The notes below the pieces were generated by a model that saw only the letters and a list, made by a program, of their open reading frames with translations, was not told the DNA's origin and did not search any database. From UHGV virus genome UHGV-0257029: a stretch of 14,896 nucleotides of DNA; one strand, given 5' to 3'. This stretch comes from a virus. Position 1 is the first letter of the stretch, and each line of letters starts with the position of its first letter. Both the position numbers and the translations under genes were made by a program. Below are positions 3,958 through 14,896 of this stretch, in pieces.

Positions 3958-4257
3958 TTAAAAATCCATCTGGATTTGTTCAGAACGCTCGGTCTTGCAC
4001 ACCGGGCGTTTTTTATTGGTGAGTCCATCAAGCGCATACTTAAAAGCCCTGCTAATCGGACTGATGTCTGATGCCATTCCGAAAGCACACAAGACCGAAG
4101 CAATAAACCGCCAGTCCGTTCTGCTTATCTTCGATTCATGACAGCCAATCATCTTTGCCAGACCGCGCTGGGTAAGCGTTGACAGGTTGATGAGTAAATC
4201 TGTTTCTGCGCGATCAATTTCTCGCTGTGTTGGCTTGCTATAACTTGCTTGTGTCAT
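3958..4257 (-). CDS. cII: CII-like transcriptional activator
   Basis: First gene after cro on the pR operon. C-terminal ...LTNKKRP..TERSEQIQMDF closely resembles the lambda CII C-terminus as recalled; N-terminal part diverges. Confidence 0.65.
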   Translation of the reverse strand: MTQASYSKPTQREIDRAETDLLINLSTLTQRGLAKMIGCHESKISRTDWRFIASVLCAFGMASDISPISRAFKYALDGLTNKKRPVCKTERSEQIQMDF

Positions 4258-4692: not shown

Positions 4693-5409
<717 letters not shown>

Positions 5410-5479: not shown

Positions 5480-6478
5480 TTGGAAATCAGCACGGCGGTT
5501 ATTCATTCCGAAGAAGATGCTTTGCGTTTTGTTGAGATGTACATCGCTGGGCAAGATCTTCCTGATGGAATATCATTTGAAGGGTGGCCTAACTTAACCT
5601 TCCGTCTTACTGGTGACAAATTTCATGGCAGTTTGACTCCTTCTGTCATGAAGGGTTTTGTTGAAATGCAGGCCCAAATAAACCGAGCTTATGCATTGTT
5701 AAAGTACGGAGTTCCTGACCCAAGAAAGCTTTCAAAAGAAGAGAAGGAAGCTATCGAAATTCAGGTGAATGTTGAGAATGGCTCGTCCTTGATAGAAGTT
5801 AATATGGATGGGTTCATGGGTGAGGTTATACAAACTGCGGTGAGTAAAGTGGGCCCTCAAGAGATCGTTATTACAGTTTTAGGGGTCGCTCTTATATGGG
5901 GCGGCGTCGTCCTATTCAAAAAATATCTAGAAGACCGCAAAGAGATTCGCATGGCAGAAGTAAAAAGCGAGTCTGAGCGTGAACACCTTGCGACCATGCG
6001 CTTCATGTCTGAGCAGGAAACAAAACGAAGTGAATTATTGACTCAGATTATTAGCGAAAAACCCAAGCTAGACAACATGGAAAGACTTGCTCATGACGCA
6101 AAAACCGACATAGTTAAATCATTTGTCAAGGCTGATACAGCTCAGATTGATGGCGTTGTATTGGATGCAGATCTATCCAAAACCCTCACTACAAATGCAA
6201 GGCGGAAATCAATGGAGATCCGCCTTGATGGAAATTATCGCATTGAAAAGGTTGACTCCACTGATCCAGAGAGCTTCAAAGTGCAAGTGAGAAATGTTGA
6301 CTCCGATCTAAGAATATCGTGCATAGTACAAGATGTATTTCTCGACGCATCCGAGCATAAAAAAGCTCTTCAGCAAGCTGAGTGGGATAGAAAACCAGTT
6401 CATTTGTCAATCAACGCAAAAGAACTAGATGGTGAAATAAAGTCCGCGATAATACTTTATGTCAAAGAGATAACATAA
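5480..6478 (+). CDS. Unknown 332-aa protein with one central predicted transmembrane helix, in the rexA/rexB position
   Basis: ORF on the cI strand between cI and OL. TTG start at 5480 with RBS agagg 8 nt upstream (alternative ATG at 5537). Hydrophobic segment IVITVLGVALIWGGVVLF near residues 131-148. No resemblance to RexA or RexB as recalled, and no kinase or nuclease motifs seen. Confidence 0.6.
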   Translation: MEISTAVIHSEEDALRFVEMYIAGQDLPDGISFEGWPNLTFRLTGDKFHGSLTPSVMKGFVEMQAQINRAYALLKYGVPDPRKLSKEEKEAIEIQVNVENGSSLIEVNMDGFMGEVIQTAVSKVGPQEIVITVLGVALIWGGVVLFKKYLEDRKEIRMAEVKSESEREHLATMRFMSEQETKRSELLTQIISEKPKLDNMERLAHDAKTDIVKSFVKADTAQIDGVVLDADLSKTLTTNARRKSMEIRLDGNYRIEKVDSTDPESFKVQVRNVDSDLRISCIVQDVFLDASEHKKALQQAEWDRKPVHLSINAKELDGEIKSAIILYVKEIT

Positions 6479-6809: not shown

Positions 6810-6937
6810 AATAACCAAAGTGAACTTTGGGGTGAATGCAGAGGCTAACCTTCTCGGCGGAGGCGCTTTGCAATGATTACGCGACCGGAGTTAGTCGCCC
6901 GGCTGTATTCACCACCAAAGTTCATCAGGAGGTCTAT

Positions 6938-7321
6938 ATGACACGCAGAACTCAGTTCAAAGGCAATTCACGTTCTCGTCGTCGTGAGCGTTTAAAGGCA
7001 AAGGCATTAGCTAACGGCGTACTGGCCCGCGAAGAAGCAATAAGTTCAGAAGTATTACACCGCCCTACTCTAAGCAGAGCGCAGATTCAGGCTAAAGGTA
7101 CTCACGAAACGCCTGAGCGCATAGAAGACGCTAAGCCAATTAAGTTCATGGCACAGGACGTGATCTGGCAACAGAAAGAATACAGACGCAATCTGGAGCG
7201 AGCGGCCATTGTGTACGCGAATGAGTTTGGACATAAGCAACCAGAAACTGGTGTATGTCTTCCAGATGTAGCTCTTTACGCAGCAGGATACCGGAAATCA
7301 AAACAACTGACGGCGAGATGA
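6938..7321 (+). CDS. N: N-type antiterminator (non-lambda N; arginine-rich motif)
   Basis: First gene downstream of pL/nutL. ATG at 6938 has a strong RBS aggagg; the 6836 track start would swallow nutL. N-terminal MTRRTQFKGNSRSRRRERLKAKA is an arginine-rich motif. Not the lambda N sequence as recalled; resembles N of Stx-type lambdoid phages from memory. Confidence 0.7.
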   Translation: MTRRTQFKGNSRSRRRERLKAKALANGVLAREEAISSEVLHRPTLSRAQIQAKGTHETPERIEDAKPIKFMAQDVIWQQKEYRRNLERAAIVYANEFGHKQPETGVCLPDVALYAAGYRKSKQLTAR

Positions 7322-7811: not shown

Positions 7812-7872
7812 TATGCATACCAATAACGCTTCATTCGAGGCGTTTTCGTTATGTATAAATAAGGAGCACACC

Positions 7873-8013
7873 ATGCAATATGCCATTGCAGGGTGGCCTG
7901 TTGCTGGCTGCCCTTCCGAATCTTTACTTGAACGAATCACACGTAAATTACGTGATGGATGGAAACGCCTTATCGACATACTTAATCAGCCAGGAGTTCC
8001 CAAAAATGGATAA
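7873..8013 (+). CDS. cIII: CIII (FtsH/HflB inhibitor), shorter C-terminus than lambda
   Basis: MQYAIAGWPVAGCPSESLLERITRKLRDGWKRLIDILNQPGVPKNG matches lambda CIII as recalled except for the truncated C-terminus. RBS aaggag 6 nt upstream of the ATG at 7873; the track start at 7813 lacks an RBS. Confidence 0.85.
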   Translation: MQYAIAGWPVAGCPSESLLERITRKLRDGWKRLIDILNQPGVPKNG

Positions 8014-8119
8014 AACACTTATGGCTATCCAGACTAAATTCACTATCGCCACTTTTATTGGCGATGAAAAGATGTTTCGTGAAGCCGTAGAAGCCTACAG
8101 AAAATGGAGGTCAAAATGA
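8006..8119 (+). CDS. kil: Kil-like host-killing / FtsZ-inhibiting small protein
   Basis: MDKTLMAIQTKFTIATFIGDEKMFREAV... resembles lambda Kil as recalled. ATG overlaps the cIII 3' end. Confidence 0.7.
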   Translation: MDKTLMAIQTKFTIATFIGDEKMFREAVEAYRKWRSK

Positions 8120-8304
8120 TTCCGGTAGAACTGGCGAAAACTCCAGAGTTAAGTCGATTAAAAAGAGAATATCACATTGCTGAGGCTCGTTACTGGCGTA
8201 AAGCGGGAGATAAATCAAAGAAACAACTTTGTTTATGGCAGGCGCAAAGAGAGCGCATGAATGAGCGCGAATTTCTTTCCTGCCCATCCGAATTACCATT
8301 CTGA
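8116..8304 (+). CDS. Hypothetical 62-aa protein in the gam position (not Gam-like)
   Basis: ATG at 8116 overlaps the kil stop (ATGA) and has RBS ggagg. Basic protein MIPVELAKTPELSRLKREYH... Confidence 0.45.
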   Translation: MIPVELAKTPELSRLKREYHIAEARYWRKAGDKSKKQLCLWQAQRERMNEREFLSCPSELPF

Positions 8305-8312
8305 GGCAAATT

Positions 8313-8993
8313 ATGGGAACTGCGACATTAATACTCGGTGAATCTGGCACCGGAAAATCAACCAGCATGAGAAATATCAATCCAGAGGAAGCAATACTTA
8401 TAAAACCAATAGGCAAGCCGCTACCATTTAAATCAAAAGACTGGCTTGCATGGGATGCCAGAGCAAAAAAAGGAACCGTAGTTACCACTGACAAATGGGA
8501 CGTAATAGTTGCTGCAATTAAGCGTGCTCACGAATACGGAAAAAGAATCGTTATTGTTGATGACTTCCAGTATGTGATGAGCAATGAGTTTATGCGCCGC
8601 TCAGAAGAAAAATCGTTTGATAAATTTACTGAGATAGGCCGCCACGCATGGGAGGTGATTAAGGCTGCACAGGATGCACCTGATGACCTGAGAGTCTATT
8701 TTCTTGCACATACCGAAGAAACCCCTATGGGGCGCGTGAAAATGAAAACTATCGGCAAAATGCTGGACGAGAAAATCACTGTCGAAGGCATGTTTACTAT
8801 AGTTCTTCGCACTCTTACCCGCGATGACCAGTTCTTTTTCACCACGAAAAACAACGGTGCAGACACTGTCAAATCCCCAATGGGAATGTTTGATTCCAAT
8901 GAGATTGATAACGATCTCTCTTTCGTCGATGCCACTGTTTGTGATTACTACGGCATCAATAATGTTCATCAAATTAAGGAAAACGCCGCATGA
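8313..8993 (+). CDS. Sak4-like RecA-fold P-loop ATPase (putative phage recombinase)
   Basis: 226 aa with Walker A GESGTGKS at the N-terminus and Walker B-like IVIVDD. Occupies the bet/exo position of the early-left operon; size and motif layout fit the Sak4 / AAA_24 family from memory. Confidence 0.55.
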   Translation: MGTATLILGESGTGKSTSMRNINPEEAILIKPIGKPLPFKSKDWLAWDARAKKGTVVTTDKWDVIVAAIKRAHEYGKRIVIVDDFQYVMSNEFMRRSEEKSFDKFTEIGRHAWEVIKAAQDAPDDLRVYFLAHTEETPMGRVKMKTIGKMLDEKITVEGMFTIVLRTLTRDDQFFFTTKNNGADTVKSPMGMFDSNEIDNDLSFVDATVCDYYGINNVHQIKENAA

Positions 8994-9577
8994 GCAACGT
9001 GATTTTTACTTATAACGAAGAAGCAGCACTGACCGCAGGGCAAGGTGGTTTTATTAACGAAACTGGCGCCCATATCATTACCATTACTGAAGCAGAACTA
9101 AAGCAATCAGAAAAAGGAGCCAAATTTATTGAGTTTTCTGGAGAATCCGACGACGGCCGTAAAATCCAATATCTTAGCGTCTGTGTTCAGAAAAATGACG
9201 GAACGGAAAACAAATTTGGCGCAAATGTCGTTCACGCCATGATGGGGTGTGCTGGGATTGGACAATTAACGCAGCATATGGCTTCCGCCAGTAAATTTGT
9301 TGCACCTGAATTTCATGGAAAGAAAATCGGGTTAGTGCTCCAGAAAGTATTAACCACAAACAAAAAGACTGGCGCAGACAGCTACCAGATGGAAATACGC
9401 ATCCCGTTTATTGCACAAACAGGTCAAACCCTTAAAGAAAAGGCGGAAGGCAAGCAACCAGAAACTATCGCCAACATGGTTGCCAGCCTCAAAGATAAAG
9501 ACAATCGCTCTAAAAACGTAAGCCATAATCATGCAGATGATTATGGTTACAGCCAGAACGATTACCCTCCTTTCTGA
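8990..9577 (+). CDS. Putative phage ssDNA-binding protein partnering the Sak4-like ATPase
   Basis: 195-aa ORF whose start overlaps the ATPase stop (ATGA). Acidic/aromatic C-terminal tail ...HADDYGYSQNDYPPF is reminiscent of SSB tails. Assignment from gene context and tail only. Confidence 0.35.
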   Translation: MSNVIFTYNEEAALTAGQGGFINETGAHIITITEAELKQSEKGAKFIEFSGESDDGRKIQYLSVCVQKNDGTENKFGANVVHAMMGCAGIGQLTQHMASASKFVAPEFHGKKIGLVLQKVLTTNKKTGADSYQMEIRIPFIAQTGQTLKEKAEGKQPETIANMVASLKDKDNRSKNVSHNHADDYGYSQNDYPPF

Positions 9578-9600: not shown

Positions 9601-9897
9601 ATGCCAGCGCCTCTGTATGGTGCGGATGACCCGCGCAATTGCTCCGGTAGCTCCAAGGCGGAGGTGCTGGAAAATATCAAAAACAATTTCGACGCGTTTC
9701 TTGCTCTGACACCAGAAACAAAAGCAGAACGGATGTACCGACGCGATATACAACTCGCGCTAAAACAGGAGAAGGACCGAACAAACGAAACAGCAATGAG
9801 ACCGTTGCGAAAAGCGACAATAGACAAATTCCCTGAATATATCGACCCGCGCCTGCGTAATTACCGCTCACGCTATGGCGCTATCAGTAATGACTGA
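9601..9897 (+). CDS. Hypothetical protein, 98 aa
   Basis: ORF in the co-directional accessory block; no recognisable motif. Confidence 0.45.
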
Positions 9898-9907
9898 GGA
9901 ATTTACC

Positions 9908-10072
9908 ATGAGAGGACTTGCATACAATCCCGGCATTCTTCCGGCAGAAATGATTATTCGCCAACGCGTAAAGCCAATGCCATCGAGAGAGGAATTGCTT
10001 AAGAGAAATTCTTTTCCATCAGTGAATCAAAACAAATATCTGAATGCGATGTTGCGGAGTGGGAAGAAATGA
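9908..10072 (+). CDS. Hypothetical protein, 54 aa
   Basis: ATG at 9908 preceded by gagga; the track ORF begins at 9875, but that start overlaps the preceding gene without an RBS. Confidence 0.35.
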
Positions 10073-10518
10073 AACAAATGTCACTAATTGAGATGGATGG
10101 ATTTCTTAAAGGTAAATGCATCCCACGAGATTTAAAGGTTAACGAAACAAACGCTGAATATCTGGTGCGTAAGTTCGGTGAACTTGAATCAAAACTGGAA
10201 ACGGCGTTGCGGGAGTGTCGTTCTGCTGGAATCACGATTGATAACCTTGAGGATAAATGCGCGAAGATGGCTGCTGAAAATACCTCGCTTAAGCAATCTG
10301 AGAAGGAATTTAATGACTTTTGTCGTGAGGAGTTTAGCGAATGGGAAGATGATGTTACTGAAACCCCAGCCACCGACGCCTCCCTTGCTGAAGTGCGGGC
10401 GCAGGGCGTGGAGATGGCTATGGAGCATATGCAGTCGAGCGGTTCGTTAACATTTGGAGATTGCTACATATCACTTAACGAGTTCGCCGCAGAGCTTCGC
10501 AAAGGAGGTAACCAGTGA
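10069..10518 (+). CDS. Hypothetical coiled-coil protein, 149 aa
   Basis: ATGA overlap with the upstream ORF; acidic central region with heptad-like pattern. Confidence 0.5.
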
Positions 10519-10814
10519 GTGTATATCTTATTGATAAACGTCGACGTGGGCAACAAATACCACCTGTAGGAATTCCGAATCACACATGGTTTTGCGTACT
10601 TGATATCGATGGTATGGATACGTTGGTTGACACTCGTCATTACTGCGATACCGCAACAGCTACTCCGGCGAAAGCAAAGAAAATGGCTGCTCTGATAGAA
10701 AACTGGACTCCACCTGATGGTTGGTGCAATGGGAATGATCGAGATTGGCACGAAAAAATGAAGGGCTATATCTGCGATTTTTTACGTAAATGCAACGGCT
10801 TCAGGGTGATGTGA
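10515..10814 (+). CDS. Hypothetical Cys-containing protein, 99 aa
   Basis: GTG start at 10515 overlapping the upstream stop, preceded by strong RBS aaaggagg. Confidence 0.45.
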   Translation: MSVYLIDKRRRGQQIPPVGIPNHTWFCVLDIDGMDTLVDTRHYCDTATATPAKAKKMAALIENWTPPDGWCNGNDRDWHEKMKGYICDFLRKCNGFRVM

Positions 10815-10815
10815 T

Positions 10816-11358
10816 ATGACCAACATTAACTATCAGGCACTGCGTGAAAAGGCAGAAAAAGCAACGTGGGGAGACTGGGACTCATATAAACCACACCGTG
10901 GCGCACGTGGTTATAAGGTCCGACTAAGTGGTCAGGCCATTGCGCAACACGTTCTGAAAAACAACGCTGAATTTATTGCTGCCTTTAATCCAAAGGTTGC
11001 TTTGGCACTACTGGATGAACGGGAAAGAAACCTGCAATACATCAAAAGCCGCGATCAGGAGAACGAGGATATTGCGCTTACGGTTGGGAAGCTGCGCGTT
11101 GAGCTTGAAGCAGCAAAATCAAAACTCAACGAGCAGCGCGAGTATTACGAGGGAGTTATCTCTGATGGGTGCAAGCGTATTGCTGAACTGGAAGCGCGGG
11201 AAGTTCAATTACCGACTCGCTACGACCTTCGATATGGACACCCGATAAATGCAGATGAGCGACAAGTCATGATACCTAAAGAAAATGGCAGTTGGCTTTA
11301 CCTGATTGACCTGGAACACGCATTACGCGTCGCTGACATTCGCATTAAAGGAGAGTGA
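10816..11358 (+). CDS. Ea22-like early protein (tentative)
   Basis: 180-aa ORF. N-terminal MTNINYQALREKAEKATWGDW and a central coiled coil resemble the Ead/Ea22-like family of lambdoid prophages, from memory only. Confidence 0.45.
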   Translation: MTNINYQALREKAEKATWGDWDSYKPHRGARGYKVRLSGQAIAQHVLKNNAEFIAAFNPKVALALLDERERNLQYIKSRDQENEDIALTVGKLRVELEAAKSKLNEQREYYEGVISDGCKRIAELEAREVQLPTRYDLRYGHPINADERQVMIPKENGSWLYLIDLEHALRVADIRIKGE

Positions 11359-11359
11359 T

Positions 11360-11623
11360 ATGGCAACTTTGACAAAAAAAGAACAAGCATGGTTGAGCGA
11401 ATTACAGGACGTTCTTGATCGCTGCCCATCACCGAAAAAAATTGGTTTTTACACCATTGGCGATAAAAGCATTTACCTGTATGACCTGCGCCGCATGGAT
11501 GAAATCATGGAGGCTCTTGATAATCGTTCGTCGATGGATTGGTGTGTTGCTGTCCATGATATGAATGCCGGATTTGATGAAAAGATTTTATTCCCCTCAT
11601 CAGTTGAAAGCACAGCAGGATAA
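11360..11623 (+). CDS. Hypothetical protein, 87 aa
   Basis: ATG at 11360 directly after the upstream stop, with RBS aaggagag; the track ORF starts earlier at 11306. Confidence 0.45.
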   Translation: MATLTKKEQAWLSELQDVLDRCPSPKKIGFYTIGDKSIYLYDLRRMDEIMEALDNRSSMDWCVAVHDMNAGFDEKILFPSSVESTAG

Positions 11624-11659
11624 GGACTAACACATGACAACATGGGAAAGGAAAGTGAT

Positions 11660-12175
11660 ATGGCGTTAACACACCACGAACTCTGTCAGATTGCGTACAA
11701 GTTCCTTAAGCGCAACGGGTTCAAGGTTTGCTTTCATGACCGCTTTGTTGCTGTAACCAGTACCGGAGAACAGCCAGATGCTATGGGATTCAGAAATTCA
11801 GCATCATGCCTGATAGAGGCGAAGTGTTCTCGTGCTGACTTGTTGGCAGATAGAAAAAAGCGTTTCCGTAAAAATCCCTCACTTGGCATGGGCGACTGGC
11901 GATTCTTTATTAGTGAGCCGGAAATTATTTCAGTTGAGGATTTACCTCCCGGCTGGGGATTACTTCACGTTGTTAACGGAAGAGTACGGAAAGTACATGG
12001 ATGGCCCAGGGGTAATTGCTGTTGGGGTAATCCTGACGATAAGCCATTTACTGGGAATAAGCAGGTTGAATGCGATTACATGTTATCTGCATTAAGGCGC
12101 ATGGAGTTGAGAGGGCACCTTAATGAAATATATGACGGTGTGATTGTTAATAAGAAAGAAGGAAACGCGGCATGA
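11660..12175 (+). CDS. Putative PD-(D/E)xK-fold nuclease
   Basis: Motif ...EQPDAMGF(x9)LIEAKC... fits the PD-(x)n-ExK signature. ATG at 11660 preferred for its RBS aggaaag; alternative ATG at 11642. Confidence 0.4.
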   Translation: MALTHHELCQIAYKFLKRNGFKVCFHDRFVAVTSTGEQPDAMGFRNSASCLIEAKCSRADLLADRKKRFRKNPSLGMGDWRFFISEPEIISVEDLPPGWGLLHVVNGRVRKVHGWPRGNCCWGNPDDKPFTGNKQVECDYMLSALRRMELRGHLNEIYDGVIVNKKEGNAA

Positions 12176-13038
12176 TCACTATTACCAAAGGGCGACTGCT
12201 GACAATCAAGCAGTGGCGCGAAACATACGGACCGGGTAGCAACGTTGTACTGCCAGCAGAAGAAGCGGAAGAACTGGCACGAATTGCACTGGTATCGCTG
12301 GAAGCAGAGCCGGTGGCAAAGATTATAGCTCATTACCCATTAGGAGTTGACGTAGGCAAACAAAAGTTCGTACAGGCCATTGGAGAGCTTCCTGACTTTG
12401 GCGGATATCTATTTGCCGCCCCTCCAGCGCCGATAGTGCCGGAAGAAATGTATTGGCAGGATGCGCCAGTTGAAGGCAGCAGCAAAGCGGCTGCATACGC
12501 TACAGGCTGGAACGATTGCCGCGAAGCCATGCTTCAGTCCGGAAACTTTCGGGAAAATAAAGATTCGTCAACCAATAATTTTCGGGAAATCGCGGAAACG
12601 TCAACCAACTATCCGGCAATTCCTAGTGAGGTGTTGTCCGCAATCCTGAAGGTTGCCAGGATTCGTGCCGATTTCGATGATTTTGACGGTGACAGGCGAG
12701 GTATCGGTGATTGTCTGGATGAGGCTGAGCAAGAGCTTATCGTTACCATTAACAAATATGCCAGTCAGTTGGCAGCAGAACCTATAGCGCCTAATGACGT
12801 TCGAGAGCAGACAGCCATTCCACAAGTTCCGGTAACTCCGGATGGTTGGATAAGCTGTAGTGAGCGAATGCCGGACGACAGGCAGGAAGTTGTTGTTCAA
12901 ACTCATTCAGGGTGGCGTTACATCGCATTCTACGAATCCCACTCTGGATTGTTCTATGACAGTCCTGAGGGTGATGTCGAGTATGTTCTCGTAACCCACT
13001 GGATGCCGCTACCAGAACCGCCGCAGGAGGTGAAGTGA
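12172..13038 (+). CDS. DUF551-domain prophage protein
   Basis: C-terminal WISCSERMPDD...VLVTHWMPLPEPP matches the DUF551 signature as recalled. An internal imperfect tandem DNA repeat at about 12541..12610 encodes NFRENKDSSTNNFREIAETSTN. Confidence 0.6.
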   Translation: MITITKGRLLTIKQWRETYGPGSNVVLPAEEAEELARIALVSLEAEPVAKIIAHYPLGVDVGKQKFVQAIGELPDFGGYLFAAPPAPIVPEEMYWQDAPVEGSSKAAAYATGWNDCREAMLQSGNFRENKDSSTNNFREIAETSTNYPAIPSEVLSAILKVARIRADFDDFDGDRRGIGDCLDEAEQELIVTINKYASQLAAEPIAPNDVREQTAIPQVPVTPDGWISCSERMPDDRQEVVVQTHSGWRYIAFYESHSGLFYDSPEGDVEYVLVTHWMPLPEPPQEVK

Positions 13039-13322
13039 TGGACTCCTTCGCGAAATATACGATTATTGACTGGATAGCCTTCCTTCAGGTTTTGCTCATC
13101 TGGTTTTATATGGCTTACAGGAGTGGACAGTGGATTGTCAGTGTAGCCTGTAGCAAGGGATGGCGTTGGTGGAACCGAAAGAATAAAAAAGCACTGGCAT
13201 TGGATTCATTTTACGAAGCATTCAATCTTAACAGCCTTCAGCCTGGTTCTGTCATTGTAGTCACCACTCAAAGCGGCATGACGATACAAATTCACAAGCC
13301 AAAGGAGGAAGGTCGTGGCTAA
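13038..13322 (+). CDS. Small membrane protein, 94 aa
   Basis: ATG at 13038 has RBS aggagg 7 nt upstream. N-terminal hydrophobic segment IIDWIAFLQVLLIWFYMAY. Confidence 0.45.
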   Translation: MDSFAKYTIIDWIAFLQVLLIWFYMAYRSGQWIVSVACSKGWRWWNRKNKKALALDSFYEAFNLNSLQPGSVIVVTTQSGMTIQIHKPKEEGRG

Positions 13323-13422
13323 CCTTCAACTTGCCGTCAAAGGTGAATAACAATCCTCGCACTCGCGGGGATTTCTTTTATCTGAACTCGCTACGGCGGG
13401 TTTTGTTTTATGGAGATGATAA

Positions 13423-13590
13423 ATGTACTTCCGGGTCACAGGCGAATGGAATGGAGAGCCATTCAACAGAGTTATCGAAGCGGAGAACATCAATGACTGC
13501 TATGACCACTGGATGATATGGGCGCAGATAGCACATGCAGACGTAACCAATATTCGAATTGAAGAACTGAAAGAACACCAAGCCGCCTGA
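13423..13590 (+). CDS. Hypothetical 55-aa protein upstream of xis
   Basis: ATG at 13423 with RBS ggag. Translation MYFRVTGEWNGEPFNRVIEAENINDCYDHWMIWAQIAHADVTNIRIEELKEHQAA. The stop codon lies inside a terminator hairpin. Below the ORF-track cutoff; the track ORF 13331..13516 is in another frame. Confidence 0.4.
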   Translation: MYFRVTGEWNGEPFNRVIEAENINDCYDHWMIWAQIAHADVTNIRIEELKEHQAA

Positions 13591-13608
13591 TGGCGGCTTT
13601 TTCTTGCG
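13580..13608 (+). terminator. Intrinsic terminator upstream of xis
   Basis: aagccgcc-tgat-ggcggctt, 8-bp stem with tetraloop, followed by tttttcttg. Confidence 0.6.
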
Positions 13609-13629
13609 TGTAATTGCGGAGACTTTGCG

Positions 13630-13848
13630 ATGTACTTGACACTTCAGGAGTGGAACGCACGCCAGCGACGCCCAAGAAGCCTTGAAACAGTTCGTCGATG
13701 GGTACGCGAGTGCAGGATATTCCCTCCTCCGGTTAAGGATGGAAGAGAGTATCTGTTCCACGAATCAGCGGTAAAGGTTGACTTAAATCGACCAGTAACA
13801 GGTAGCCTTTTGAAGAGGATCAAAAATGGGAAGAAGGCGAAGTCATGA
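13630..13848 (+). CDS. xis: Excisionase Xis
   Basis: 72-aa translation MYLTLQEWNARQRRPRSLETVRRWVRECRIFPPPVKDGREYLFHESAVKVDLNRPVTG.LLKRI.NGKKAKS matches lambda Xis as recalled; 3' end overlaps the int start. Confidence 0.9.
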   Translation: MYLTLQEWNARQRRPRSLETVRRWVRECRIFPPPVKDGREYLFHESAVKVDLNRPVTGSLLKRIKNGKKAKS

Positions 13849-14896
13849 GCGCCGGGATTTACCCCCTAATCTTTATATAAGAAACAATGGATATTACTGC
13901 TACAGGGACCCAAGGACGGGTAAAGAGTTTGGATTAGGCCGAGACAGGAGGATAGCAATCACTGAAGCTATACAGGCCAACATTGAGTTATTTTCAGGAC
14001 ACAAACACAAGCCTCTGACAGCGAGAATCAACAGTGATAATTCCGTTACGTTACATTCATGGCTTGATCGCTACGAAAAAATCCTCGCCAACAGAGGAAT
14101 CAAGCAGAAGACACTCATAAATTACATGAGCAAAATTAAAGCAATAAGGAGGGGTCTGCCTGATGCTCCACTTGAAGACATCACCACAAAAGAAATTGCA
14201 GCAATGCTCAATGGATACATAGACGAGGGCAAGGCGGCGTCAGCCAAGTTAATCAGATCAACACTGAGCGATGCATTCCGAGAGGCAATAGCTGAAGGCC
14301 ATATAACAACAAACCCGGTCGCTGCCACTCGCGCAGCAAAATCAGAGGTAAGGAGATCAAGACTTACGGCTGACGAATACCTGAAAATTTATCAAGCAGC
14401 AGAATCATCACCATGTTGGCTCAGACTTGCAATGGAACTGGCTGTTGTTACCGGGCAGAGAGTTGGTGATTTATGCGAAATGAAGTGGTCTGATATCGTA
14501 GATGGATATCTTTATGTCGAGCAAAGCAAAACAGGCGTAAAAATTGCCATCCCTACAACATTGCATGTTGATGCTCTCGGGATGTCAATGAAGGAAACAC
14601 TTGGTAAATGCAAAGAGATTCTTGGCGGAGAAACCATAATTGCATCTACTCGTCGTGAACCGCTTTCATCCGGCACAGTATCAAGGTATTTTATGCGCGC
14701 ACGAAAAGCATCAGGTCTTTCCTTCGAAGGGGATCCGCCAACCTTTCACGAGTTGCGCAGTTTGTCTGCAAGACTCTATGAGAAGCAGATAAGCGATAAA
14801 TTTGCTCAACATCTTCTCGGGCATAAGTCGGACACCATGGCATCACAGTATCGTGATGACAGAGGCAGGGAGTGGGACAAAATTGAAATCAAATAA
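13826..14896 (+). CDS. int: Tyrosine integrase Int (lambda type)
   Basis: 356-aa translation matches lambda Int as recalled, including the catalytic region (...HELRSL...HLLGH...Y). The gene ends exactly at the window edge, so attP/attL is outside the window. Confidence 0.95.
   Translation: MGRRRSHERRDLPPNLYIRNNGYYCYRDPRTGKEFGLGRDRRIAITEAIQANIELFSGHKHKPLTARINSDNSVTLHSWLDRYEKILANRGIKQKTLINYMSKIKAIRRGLPDAPLEDITTKEIAAMLNGYIDEGKAASAKLIRSTLSDAFREAIAEGHITTNPVAATRAAKSEVRRSRLTADEYLKIYQAAESSPCWLRLAMELAVVTGQRVGDLCEMKWSDIVDGYLYVEQSKTGVKIAIPTTLHVDALGMSMKETLGKCKEILGGETIIASTRREPLSSGTVSRYFMRARKASGLSFEGDPPTFHELRSLSARLYEKQISDKFAQHLLGHKSDTMASQYRDDRGREWDKIEIK

Follow-up and report, generated by a model that had tools for sequence, protein, structure and literature searches.

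The stretch from 9601 to 13322 of the virus genome UHGV-0257029, which we analysed within a window of 14,896 nucleotides (nt; the whole stretch of DNA examined), holds nine plus-strand open reading frames (ORF1 to ORF9) in the layout of a pL operon, with recombination genes upstream and xis downstream. We consider it highly probable that it is the 'ea' segment of a lambdoid pL operon, of the type known from P22 and HK620, with a conserved end made up of abc2 and a DUF2737 gene, followed by a hypervariable array of delayed-early cassettes rebuilt by recombination. We thus suggest that 9601-10072 (abc2 and DUF2737) forms the conserved distal end of the Sak4-SSB recombination module, while approximately 10170-13322 would be an array of seven small, translationally coupled cassette genes, encoding an EaE-like protein, a DUF7739 protein, an Ea22-like protein, an 87-amino-acid (aa) protein, a predicted PD-(D/E)xK nuclease, a DUF551 protein and a DUF4752 membrane protein. 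By analogy with lambda and P22, and from the order of the genes, this array is expected to be transcribed as a delayed-early unit by N-antiterminated transcription from pL, and its cassettes may each be dispensable and serve to modulate the host and the lysis-lysogeny decision.

Conserved flanks, a variable interior and a cassette linker

For comparison we used 84 loci, namely 80 viral contigs anchored on Abc2 and the four cultured phages JEP4, HK629, HK106 and HK620; DNA conservation was profiled over all 84 at a threshold of at least 88% identity, and gene content was compared in those 51 that extend 3.4 kb or more downstream of abc2. Abc2 and DUF2737 are present in 48-51 of these 51 loci and orf55 and xis in 22-23, while each window allele in between is found in only 0-10 (ORF3, 4, 6, 7 and 9 in 4, 5, 3, 7 and 10 loci, respectively). 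Pieces of ORF5 and ORF8 are common (44 and 47 of the 51), and never reach 80% or more identity over 80% or more of the length. Eight presence patterns occur, none of which equals that of the window, so that the comparison of presence and absence across related prophages proposed in an initial annotation of this sequence does reveal variable content.

The DNA profile follows the same course. Sak4 and SSB are conserved in ~49 loci, and the abc2-DUF2737 pair, in 78 of 84, is the most conserved block of the stretch. Between 10050 and 10300, inside ORF3, conservation drops from 63 to 7 loci, and only 1-7 loci match over most of 10300-13000; a 120-nt island within the Ea22-like gene (10980-11100) stands out, being shared by 29 loci and having breakpoints at both ends. 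Conservation recovers to 15 loci in ORF9 and to 26-30 in the spacer and orf55, with 13 in xis/int. Conserved flanks with differing genes between them, the hallmark of a phage accessory region, are thus found here. The initial annotation had placed such an accessory island between the recombination module and xis, and had let it fill 9601-13322; the variable content and the conserved flanks stand, the left boundary does not. As abc2-DUF2737 is conserved and conservation falls inside ORF3, the data support an island that covers ~10170-13000 rather than 9601-13322, with its left edge inside ORF3. The proposed equivalence with the b/ea region of lambda likewise holds in part: the counterpart is the exo-xis ('ea22/ea8.5') interval in lambda or the 'ea' region in P22, and the b region, located past att, is not equivalent.

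The likeness to P22 and HK620 extends to position, orientation and gene order. The P22 'ea' region reads abc2-orf56-eaE-...-eaD-eaI-eaA-...-xis and that of HK620 hkaJ-hkaI-hkaH-hkaG-hkaF-hkaE-hkaD; they share with the window the place in the pL operon and the order abc2, DUF2737, EaE/hkaH-like, Ea22/EaD-like, DUF551/EaA-like, xis-int, and the Sak4-SSB module of HK620 is 98-99% identical to ours. P22 nonetheless lacks a counterpart of ORF4 (DUF7739), ORF6, ORF7 and ORF9 (DUF4752), and the similarity of ORF3, ORF5 and ORF8 to genes of P22 and HK620 is limited to segments. The exo-xis region of lambda and Stx phages (orf60a, orf63, orf61, orf73, ea22, ea8.5) is likewise early, pL-transcribed, non-essential and under-characterised (PMC10834534), and like the window it has an Ea22-family gene and an orf55 homologue beside xis; the recombination module is Exo/Beta/Gam in lambda and Sak4/SSB/Abc2 here, ORF5 lacks the C-terminal domain of lambda Ea22, and none of the ORFs searched matched the sequences of the solved Orf63, Ea8.5 or Ea22 C-terminal domain structures. 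The phage 'accessory regions' described by Silas et al. (bioRxiv 10.1101/2023.04.06.535777; PMC12373910) also combine conserved flanks with small, variable, exchanged genes and, like the window with its abc2 and ral, co-locate with counter-defence genes. The peptide strings of our variable genes gave no match in the supplements of that work, in which DUF551 and Ea22 are named in neighbourhood tables only.

The phage and E. coli collections contain no record that covers 80% or more of 9601-13322, and pieces of it occur in 3396 of 5426 complete E. coli genomes. The region is of a known kind, made of known and widespread families in a combination unseen in the collections searched.

Breakpoint hot spots lie at gene junctions (10050, 11640, 12150, 12990, 13320 and 13590) and inside genes (10170, 10980/11100 and, within ORF8, 12300 and 12600). 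An 18-nt direct repeat, AAAGGA(G/A)AGTGATATGGC, brackets ORF6: one copy, AAAGGAGAGTGATATGGC, lies at the ORF5/ORF6 junction (11347-11364, plus strand), and the other, AAAGGAAAGTGATATGGC, at the start of ORF7 (11647-11664, plus strand). The repeat comprises the last codons of the Ea22-like gene (..KGE), a ribosome-binding site (RBS), the TGA stop and the ATG of the next gene. In most ORF7 loci an Ea22-type 3' end is fused directly to ORF7 through this same linker, ORF6 being a cassette inserted between the two genes, and in the loci compared at least six different genes are found directly after the motif. As it brackets ORF6 and has many downstream partners, it behaves as a reusable linker for cassette exchange, and it offers a concrete view of how cassettes are swapped in such operons. 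The comparative data show that the array was rebuilt over evolution by recombination at such junction linkers and within shared segments of the Ea22-like, DUF551 and ORF3 genes.

The same run of cassettes was found in the chromosome of E. coli 20AR0300 (NZ_CP195498.1; L001 6001-9137), with DUF7739, Ea22-like, DUF551 and DUF4752 genes, among others, in the same order and at 99% identity. It follows replication genes and adjoins terminase genes in an unrelated RecT/YqaJ prophage, and only frameshifted or partial pseudogenes are annotated where the window has ORF6, ORF7 and ORF8. As this is an early-right position, the cassettes move between early-left and early-right operons.

Nine plus-strand ORFs fill 9601-13322 nearly without gaps, joined by coupled junctions as the initial annotation had described: ATGA overlaps at 10069 and 12172, a GTGA overlap at 10515, a GTGA/TGATG junction at 13035/13038 and TGAnATG junctions at 10816 and 11360, with two short intergenic gaps of 10 nt and 18-36 nt. 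Each of the nine has a PHROG match (E from 1e-37 to 1e-121), and for seven of them a Pfam family scores above its gathering threshold; among ten antisense or alternative-frame ORFs, eight have no PHROG match, and the two weak matches (E of 9e-6 and 2e-13) probably reflect ORFs wrongly called on the same conserved DNA. On the basis of profile alignments and RBS positions, the starts were revised to 9908 for ORF2, 11360 for ORF6 and 11660 for ORF7, while ORF9 probably starts at 13038. The base composition is unremarkable (GC content 0.44-0.51), tRNA and Rfam scans found nothing structured within 9601-13322, and repeats there are short only. Scans of the nine ORFs against NCBIfam and PADLOC returned nothing useful (for PADLOC, no match at E<=0.1).

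Abc2 and its constant neighbour

ORF1 (9601-9897, plus strand) is abc2, encoding anti-RecBCD protein 2 (98 aa). It matches Pfam PF11043 with an E-value of 1.5e-35 (121.7 bits against a cut-off of 25; residues 1-98 on profile positions 1-97) and phrog_656, 'abc2 anti-RecBCD', with 5.1e-45; against the Abc2 chain of the RecBCD-Abc2 complex solved by cryo-electron microscopy (PDB 8b1t_A), it aligns over residues 1-98 on 1-97 (E=3.7e-32), gap-free through residue 79. The protein is 61% identical to P22 Abc2 over the full length, and it keeps Pro68 ('RP' at 67-68), the residue that engages host PpiB in Abc2 (PMC9836394). By homology, ORF1 would bind the RecC subunit (mechanism in PMC9836394) and would reprogramme RecBCD, otherwise a nuclease that degrades phage DNA, to resect DNA blind to Chi on behalf of the phage annealase.

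The gene begins 23 nt after the Sak4/SSB genes, a layout shared with HK620, HK629 and JEP4, and the recombination module of HK620 has been described as hkaM-sak4-ssb-abc2 (Hutinet et al., PMC5928155). Functionally, abc2 thus belongs to the Sak4/SSB recombination module as its distal gene and is not accessory. In P22, too, abc2 (PF11043; PDB 8b1t/8b1u) directly follows the annealase and its partner gene, but there it pairs with Erf/Abc1, whereas ORF1 is paired with a Sak4 (RecA-like) annealase and SSB. The abc2 gene of HK620 did not stimulate Sak4 oligonucleotide recombineering (PMC5928155).

ORF2 (9908-10072, plus strand) encodes a basic DUF2737 protein of 54 aa, of the P22 orf56 / HK620 hkaI / HK97 gp38 type. 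It matches PF10930 at 6.5e-32 (109.6 bits, cut-off 25), with the profile beginning at residue 12 of the long ORF and a GAGGA RBS preceding the start at 9908, and it is 77% identical to P22 orf56. DUF2737 lies directly downstream of abc2 in 51 of 51 Abc2-anchored loci; conversely, among 80 DUF2737-anchored loci, 77 extend far enough upstream to be informative, and each of these has abc2 as the gene immediately before DUF2737. In this second set, 65 of the Abc2 matches are the P22-like allele of ~60% identity, and Sak4 is present in only 9 of the 80 loci. Cultured phages give the same result: 232 records contain Abc2 and 223 a full-length DUF2737, and the two are neighbours in every record for which the positions of both are listed.

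The two genes are nonetheless free to recombine: their alleles reassort and a breakpoint hot spot lies between them, at 9900, while the pair was never found apart and persists across Erf-type and Sak4-type modules at every locus examined. We take this linkage as a lead toward a possible shared function. Because the pair persists everywhere despite the reassortment of alleles and the hot spot between the genes, the DUF2737 protein might be an unrecognised partner of Abc2 in the reprogramming of RecBCD; the accessible part of a survey of lambdoid Rec modules (PMC12315714) does not list a DUF2737-like gene. Together with the proposal that ORF7 stands for a large PD-(D/E)xK family that has no Pfam model, we judge this idea unlikely to prove right on both counts. 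If true, the linkage would add a component to the classic RecBCD-hijack system that is used in recombineering.

In a further 69 records of cultured phages, e.g. NC_016763.1 (Salmonella phage SE2), the match is confined to the C-terminal half of DUF2737 (approximately residues 23-54). Many of these are Salmonella phages that are missing from the Abc2 matches listed, which suggests that a shorter relative of the protein occurs apart from Abc2 (compare phrog_4684).

The predicted nuclease ORF7 and the other cassette genes

ORF7 (11660-12175, plus strand; 171 aa) is predicted to be a nuclease of the PD-(D/E)xK fold, with E37, D40, E53 and K55 as catalytic candidates. These four residues are invariant in 48 sequences of the family down to 57% identity (GEQPD...LIExK). 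The AlphaFold (AF2) model of ORF7 (pLDDT 89.3, pTM 0.84) has helices at 5-18 and 58-64 and strands at 23-26, 41-45, 48-54 and 80-85, and thus the alpha-beta-beta-beta-alpha-beta core of the superfamily; D40 starts the second strand and ExK lies on the third, positions that fit the fold. The top Foldseek matches are nucleases of the same fold, which we counted as similarity to known members, although none is significant. A profile of the ORF7 family aligns the motif to that of 3dnx (RGLRVD...VIECKSSRADF) with E=0.2; this structure represents DUF1052/PF06319, now named MmcB-like (PMC3424549). None of the 48 family members scores above the Pfam threshold for MmcB-like (a single one matches, at E=0.095), none reaches the gathering score of Hjc (PF01870, 21.1 bits), and the family has no match in Pfam, NCBIfam or PADLOC. 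Motif and model thus place ORF7 in the PD-(D/E)xK superfamily, with MmcB-like as the closest structural relative and not as the family to which it belongs; as the MmcB-like and Hjc thresholds are not reached, we file it only under the superfamily. While DUF1052 members (structure 3dnx, SPO1766) are described as mostly alphaproteobacterial chromosomal genes, the members of the ORF7 family that we could identify come from Enterobacterales and from early regions of phages or prophages. By its fold, ORF7 is probably a Mg-dependent DNA endonuclease that may act on branched or damaged DNA.

The family is large, with 3294 cluster representatives at E<=1e-3. Among 80 ORF7-anchored loci, where the protein is 98-100% identical, an Ea22-like gene flanks it in 75 and a gene that shares the N-terminus of ORF8 in 70. 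A 428-aa ORF often lies within a few kb and resembles the Int of the window weakly in 25 of the 80 loci; from its position and this similarity, it may be a different integrase. ORF7 is thus carried as a cassette near int in the early region of several phage groups, a distribution that fits the sporadic nucleases near int noted for lambdoid early-left operons in PMC12315714. It would thus define a large family (more than 3000 clusters) of PD-(D/E)xK proteins that lacks a Pfam model and recurs in the int-proximal early regions of several groups of temperate phages.

Two associations of ORF7 did not hold up. Sak4 is present in all seven ORF7 loci of the Abc2 set, yet in none of the 80 ORF7-anchored loci (Abc2 in one), and ORF6, considered as a partner or inhibitor, accompanies ORF7 in only 12 of 80 loci and occurs without it in L066-L069. 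A distant relative, P0134 (428 aa), joins a nuclease-like domain (264-422) to an N-terminal TniB-like AAA domain (PF05621, E 3e-6), possibly a hint, from its domain composition, of an NTPase-coupled nuclease in some relatives; as the only such fusion among 10 proteins scanned, it was too sparse for interpretation.

The other array genes belong to widespread phage families. ORF3 (10069-10518, plus strand) encodes an acidic protein of 149 aa of the hkaH / P22 EaE type, which matches phrog_614 at 1.5e-58 and is 60% identical to P22 EaE over residues 60-113; its 5' ~100 nt are conserved and followed by a variable body, and a sequence search of the PDB gave no match. ORF4 (10515-10814, plus strand), a sporadic cassette of 99 aa, is a DUF7739 protein (71.3 bits, cut-off 27). 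Its fold weakly resembles DMP12/CdiI, so that it is possibly a small protein inhibitor; a role as Cys/His metal-binding protein was rejected, as C93 alone of its five Cys is invariant. If confirmed, ORF4 and ORF7 would be reasonable candidates for screens of phage counter-defence or DNA processing.

ORF5 (10816-11358, plus strand; 180 aa) is an Ead/Ea22-like protein. It matches PF13935 (9.8e-35, 120.6 bits, cut-off 27) over residues 3-126, the N-terminal and coiled-coil signature, while residues 127-180 lie outside the match and form an unrelated C-terminal segment; identity to P22 EaD (72%) is confined to residues 61-107. No Ea22 chain was retrieved at E<=1 when ORF5 was searched against the PDB for the C-terminal dimerisation domain of lambda Ea22, which was solved by nuclear magnetic resonance. 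Besides the conserved 120-nt island at 10980-11100, the gene has a conserved 3' junction; a match to MucB/RseB (E 2e-4, below the cut-off) was discarded as coiled-coil noise. In lambda and Stx phages the exo-xis region is transcribed early (PMC7093339, PMC4195576, PMC10834534) and ea22 favours lysogeny despite high sequence diversity (PMC7093339, PMC10834534); by analogy, ORF5 is probably pro-lysogenic.

ORF6 (11360-11623, plus strand) encodes an acidic protein of 87 aa that matches phrog_1714 at 2e-50, aligned from residue 19 of the long ORF and preceded by an AAGGAG RBS; it has no match in Pfam or the PDB. ORF8 (12172-13038, plus strand; 288 aa), of the P22 EaA / HK620 hkaE type, is a three-part mosaic in which different PHROGs match residues 1-125, 105-226 and 207-287; the C-terminal part is DUF551 (PF04448, 7.6e-15, 56 bits, cut-off 22, residues 225-285), and identity to P22 EaA over the full length is 27%. 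Its middle segment contains two adjacent 32-nt copies (12544-12608, plus strand) that are 75% identical at a spacing of 33 nt and encode a duplicated NFRE...ST(N) peptide. ORF9 (13038-13322, plus strand; 94 aa) is a DUF4752 protein (PF15944, 2.8e-36, 123.9 bits, cut-off 27; phrog_667, 6.7e-39) with one N-terminal hydrophobic segment at residues 8-26 (maximum 19-residue Kyte-Doolittle mean 1.78), which is probably transmembrane and would make it a small membrane protein; WD40-like matches in the PDB, with no stretch individually significant, were set aside as a repeat artefact. Sequences of the lambda Ea8.5, Orf63 and Ea22 C-terminal domain structures were not matched in the PDB by any of the eight ORFs searched.

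These results bear on the gene identities given in the initial annotation. Its Ea22-like protein (ORF5), DUF551 protein (ORF8), PD-(D/E)xK candidate (ORF7, by motif and structure model) and small membrane protein (ORF9) were all recovered. The coiled-coil protein seen in ORF3 rests on sub-threshold matches to coiled-coil families, and the Cys content noted for ORF4 is not a conserved feature, C93 being its one invariant Cys. The view that none of these genes has an assigned function must be dropped, as ORF1 is Abc2 and the Ea22 family has a published pro-lysogenic phenotype (PMC7093339, PMC10834534).

Other readings of the array and its surroundings

The cassettes can also be read as an anti-defence island, in which most or all of ORF3-ORF9 are counter-defence or host-takeover effectors against particular restriction or abortive-infection systems and their turnover reflects an arms race. 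We find this rather doubtful: an anti-restriction or anti-defence role for genes other than Abc2 is inference only, and ORF2-ORF9 have no match to a characterised anti-defence protein in Pfam, PHROGs, NCBIfam or the PDB; the one hint in this direction is the weak likeness of the ORF4 fold to DMP12/CdiI. It is possible, though not the reading we would favour, that the ORFs are instead developmental and host-physiology modulators, as in the exo-xis region of lambda and Stx phages, that act on lysis-lysogeny, induction, host replication or stress and do not fight defence. Their equivalent position between the recombination genes and xis, the Ead/Ea22 signature of ORF5 together with the pro-lysogenic role of ea22 in lambda and Stx phages (PMC7093339, PMC10834534), and reports, as relayed by PMC10834534, that YfdS, which contains DUF551, and its cluster influence the initiation of replication and the sensitivity to oxidative stress (PMC4776307) all point this way. 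However, the published phenotypes belong to different alleles, the nuclease ORF7 and the membrane protein ORF9 are not obviously regulatory, and Ea8.5, Orf63 and the lambda Ea22 C-terminal domain are unmatched by the eight ORFs searched against the PDB.

We also considered that ORF7, and perhaps other cassettes, might be a selfish, homing-type mobile nuclease gene that moves from phage to phage by cutting cassette-free alleles, with no gain in fitness for the phage. ORF7 is indeed sporadic (7 of 51 loci), is inserted at a conserved junction and is 98-100% identical at the protein level in 80 loci that mostly lack the Abc2/Sak4 context of the window; an HNH endonuclease lies in the same region of HK629, and PMC12315714 reports sporadic nucleases near int in lambdoid early-left operons. 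But the non-nuclease genes ORF4, ORF6 and ORF9 are equally sporadic and near-identical, the 3294 cluster representatives and the residues strictly conserved beyond the catalytic core argue for a cellular or phage function under selection, and no target-site duplication or intein/intron context was seen. We thus regard a selfish origin as very improbable.

Several points weigh against our reading of the stretch as a P22/HK620-type 'ea' segment. The transcription of the array from pL and its dependence on N are inferred, and HK620 annotates tL3 inside its DUF2737 gene, so that the cassettes further downstream may be expressed at a reduced level. For each anchor, the loci compared are the best 80 of ~550-600 matches, near-duplicates among them, and the counts are therefore not independent. 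The biochemical functions of ORF2-ORF9 are putative; ORF7 matches no curated nuclease family above threshold, and the Ea22 phenotype was measured on proteins whose C-terminal domains differ from that of ORF5. While this type of region is routine and well known, we believe that the Abc2-DUF2737 linkage and the unnamed ORF7 family are worth following. The value of the analysis lies mainly in correct annotation, i.e. the module membership of abc2 and DUF2737, an island that starts in ORF3, the revised starts and, for ORF7, a nuclease fold predicted with confidence and unnamed in current family databases.

The window as a whole covers the immunity and early-left region of a lambdoid prophage. All features that follow are on the plus strand: cI (4696-5409), N (6836-7321; Pfam N_peptide), then ral, cIII and kil upstream of the Sak4 gene, the Sak4-like annealase (8313-8993), SSB (8990-9577), and, beyond ORF9, an orf55 homologue, xis (13630-13848) and int (13826-14896). 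A consensus scan found no terminator-like site on the plus strand inside 9601-13322; beyond it, in the 100-nt spacer after ORF9, the same kind of scan found two terminator-like hairpins with T runs (13352-13403, plus strand), which delimit the cassette array on its right side, ahead of the orf55 homologue and xis. Another such hairpin follows the orf55 homologue (13580-13599); it is symmetric and scores on both strands. Together, these hairpins could limit read-through into xis and int unless transcription is antiterminated.

The interval between cI and N of lambdoid prophages is the home of rex/sieB-type genes expressed in the lysogen. Here it contains a 332-aa ORF (5480-6478, plus strand) that matches phrog_6191, of unknown function, with E 1e-137, and that has no Pfam match above threshold and no PADLOC match; we regard it as a candidate exclusion or defence gene expressed by the prophage. 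The lambda cIII thermoregulator RNA (Rfam RF01804, 88.5 bits), the sole Rfam family in the window, lies at the start of cIII (7860-7918, plus strand). Two cII-type TTGC-N6-TTGC sites occur on the plus strand of the window, a count not above chance, and both positions fit: 4235-4248 lies within the 5' end of cII, the position of pRE in lambda, and 13604-13617 lies shortly before xis, at the place of a cII-activated integration promoter in the annotations of HK629 and HK620. Upstream of Sak4, a 66-aa homologue of hkaM (8104-8304, plus strand) matches phrog_1723, labelled 'recombinase'; as Hutinet et al. (PMC5928155) call HkaM an orphan of unknown function, this label looks positional.

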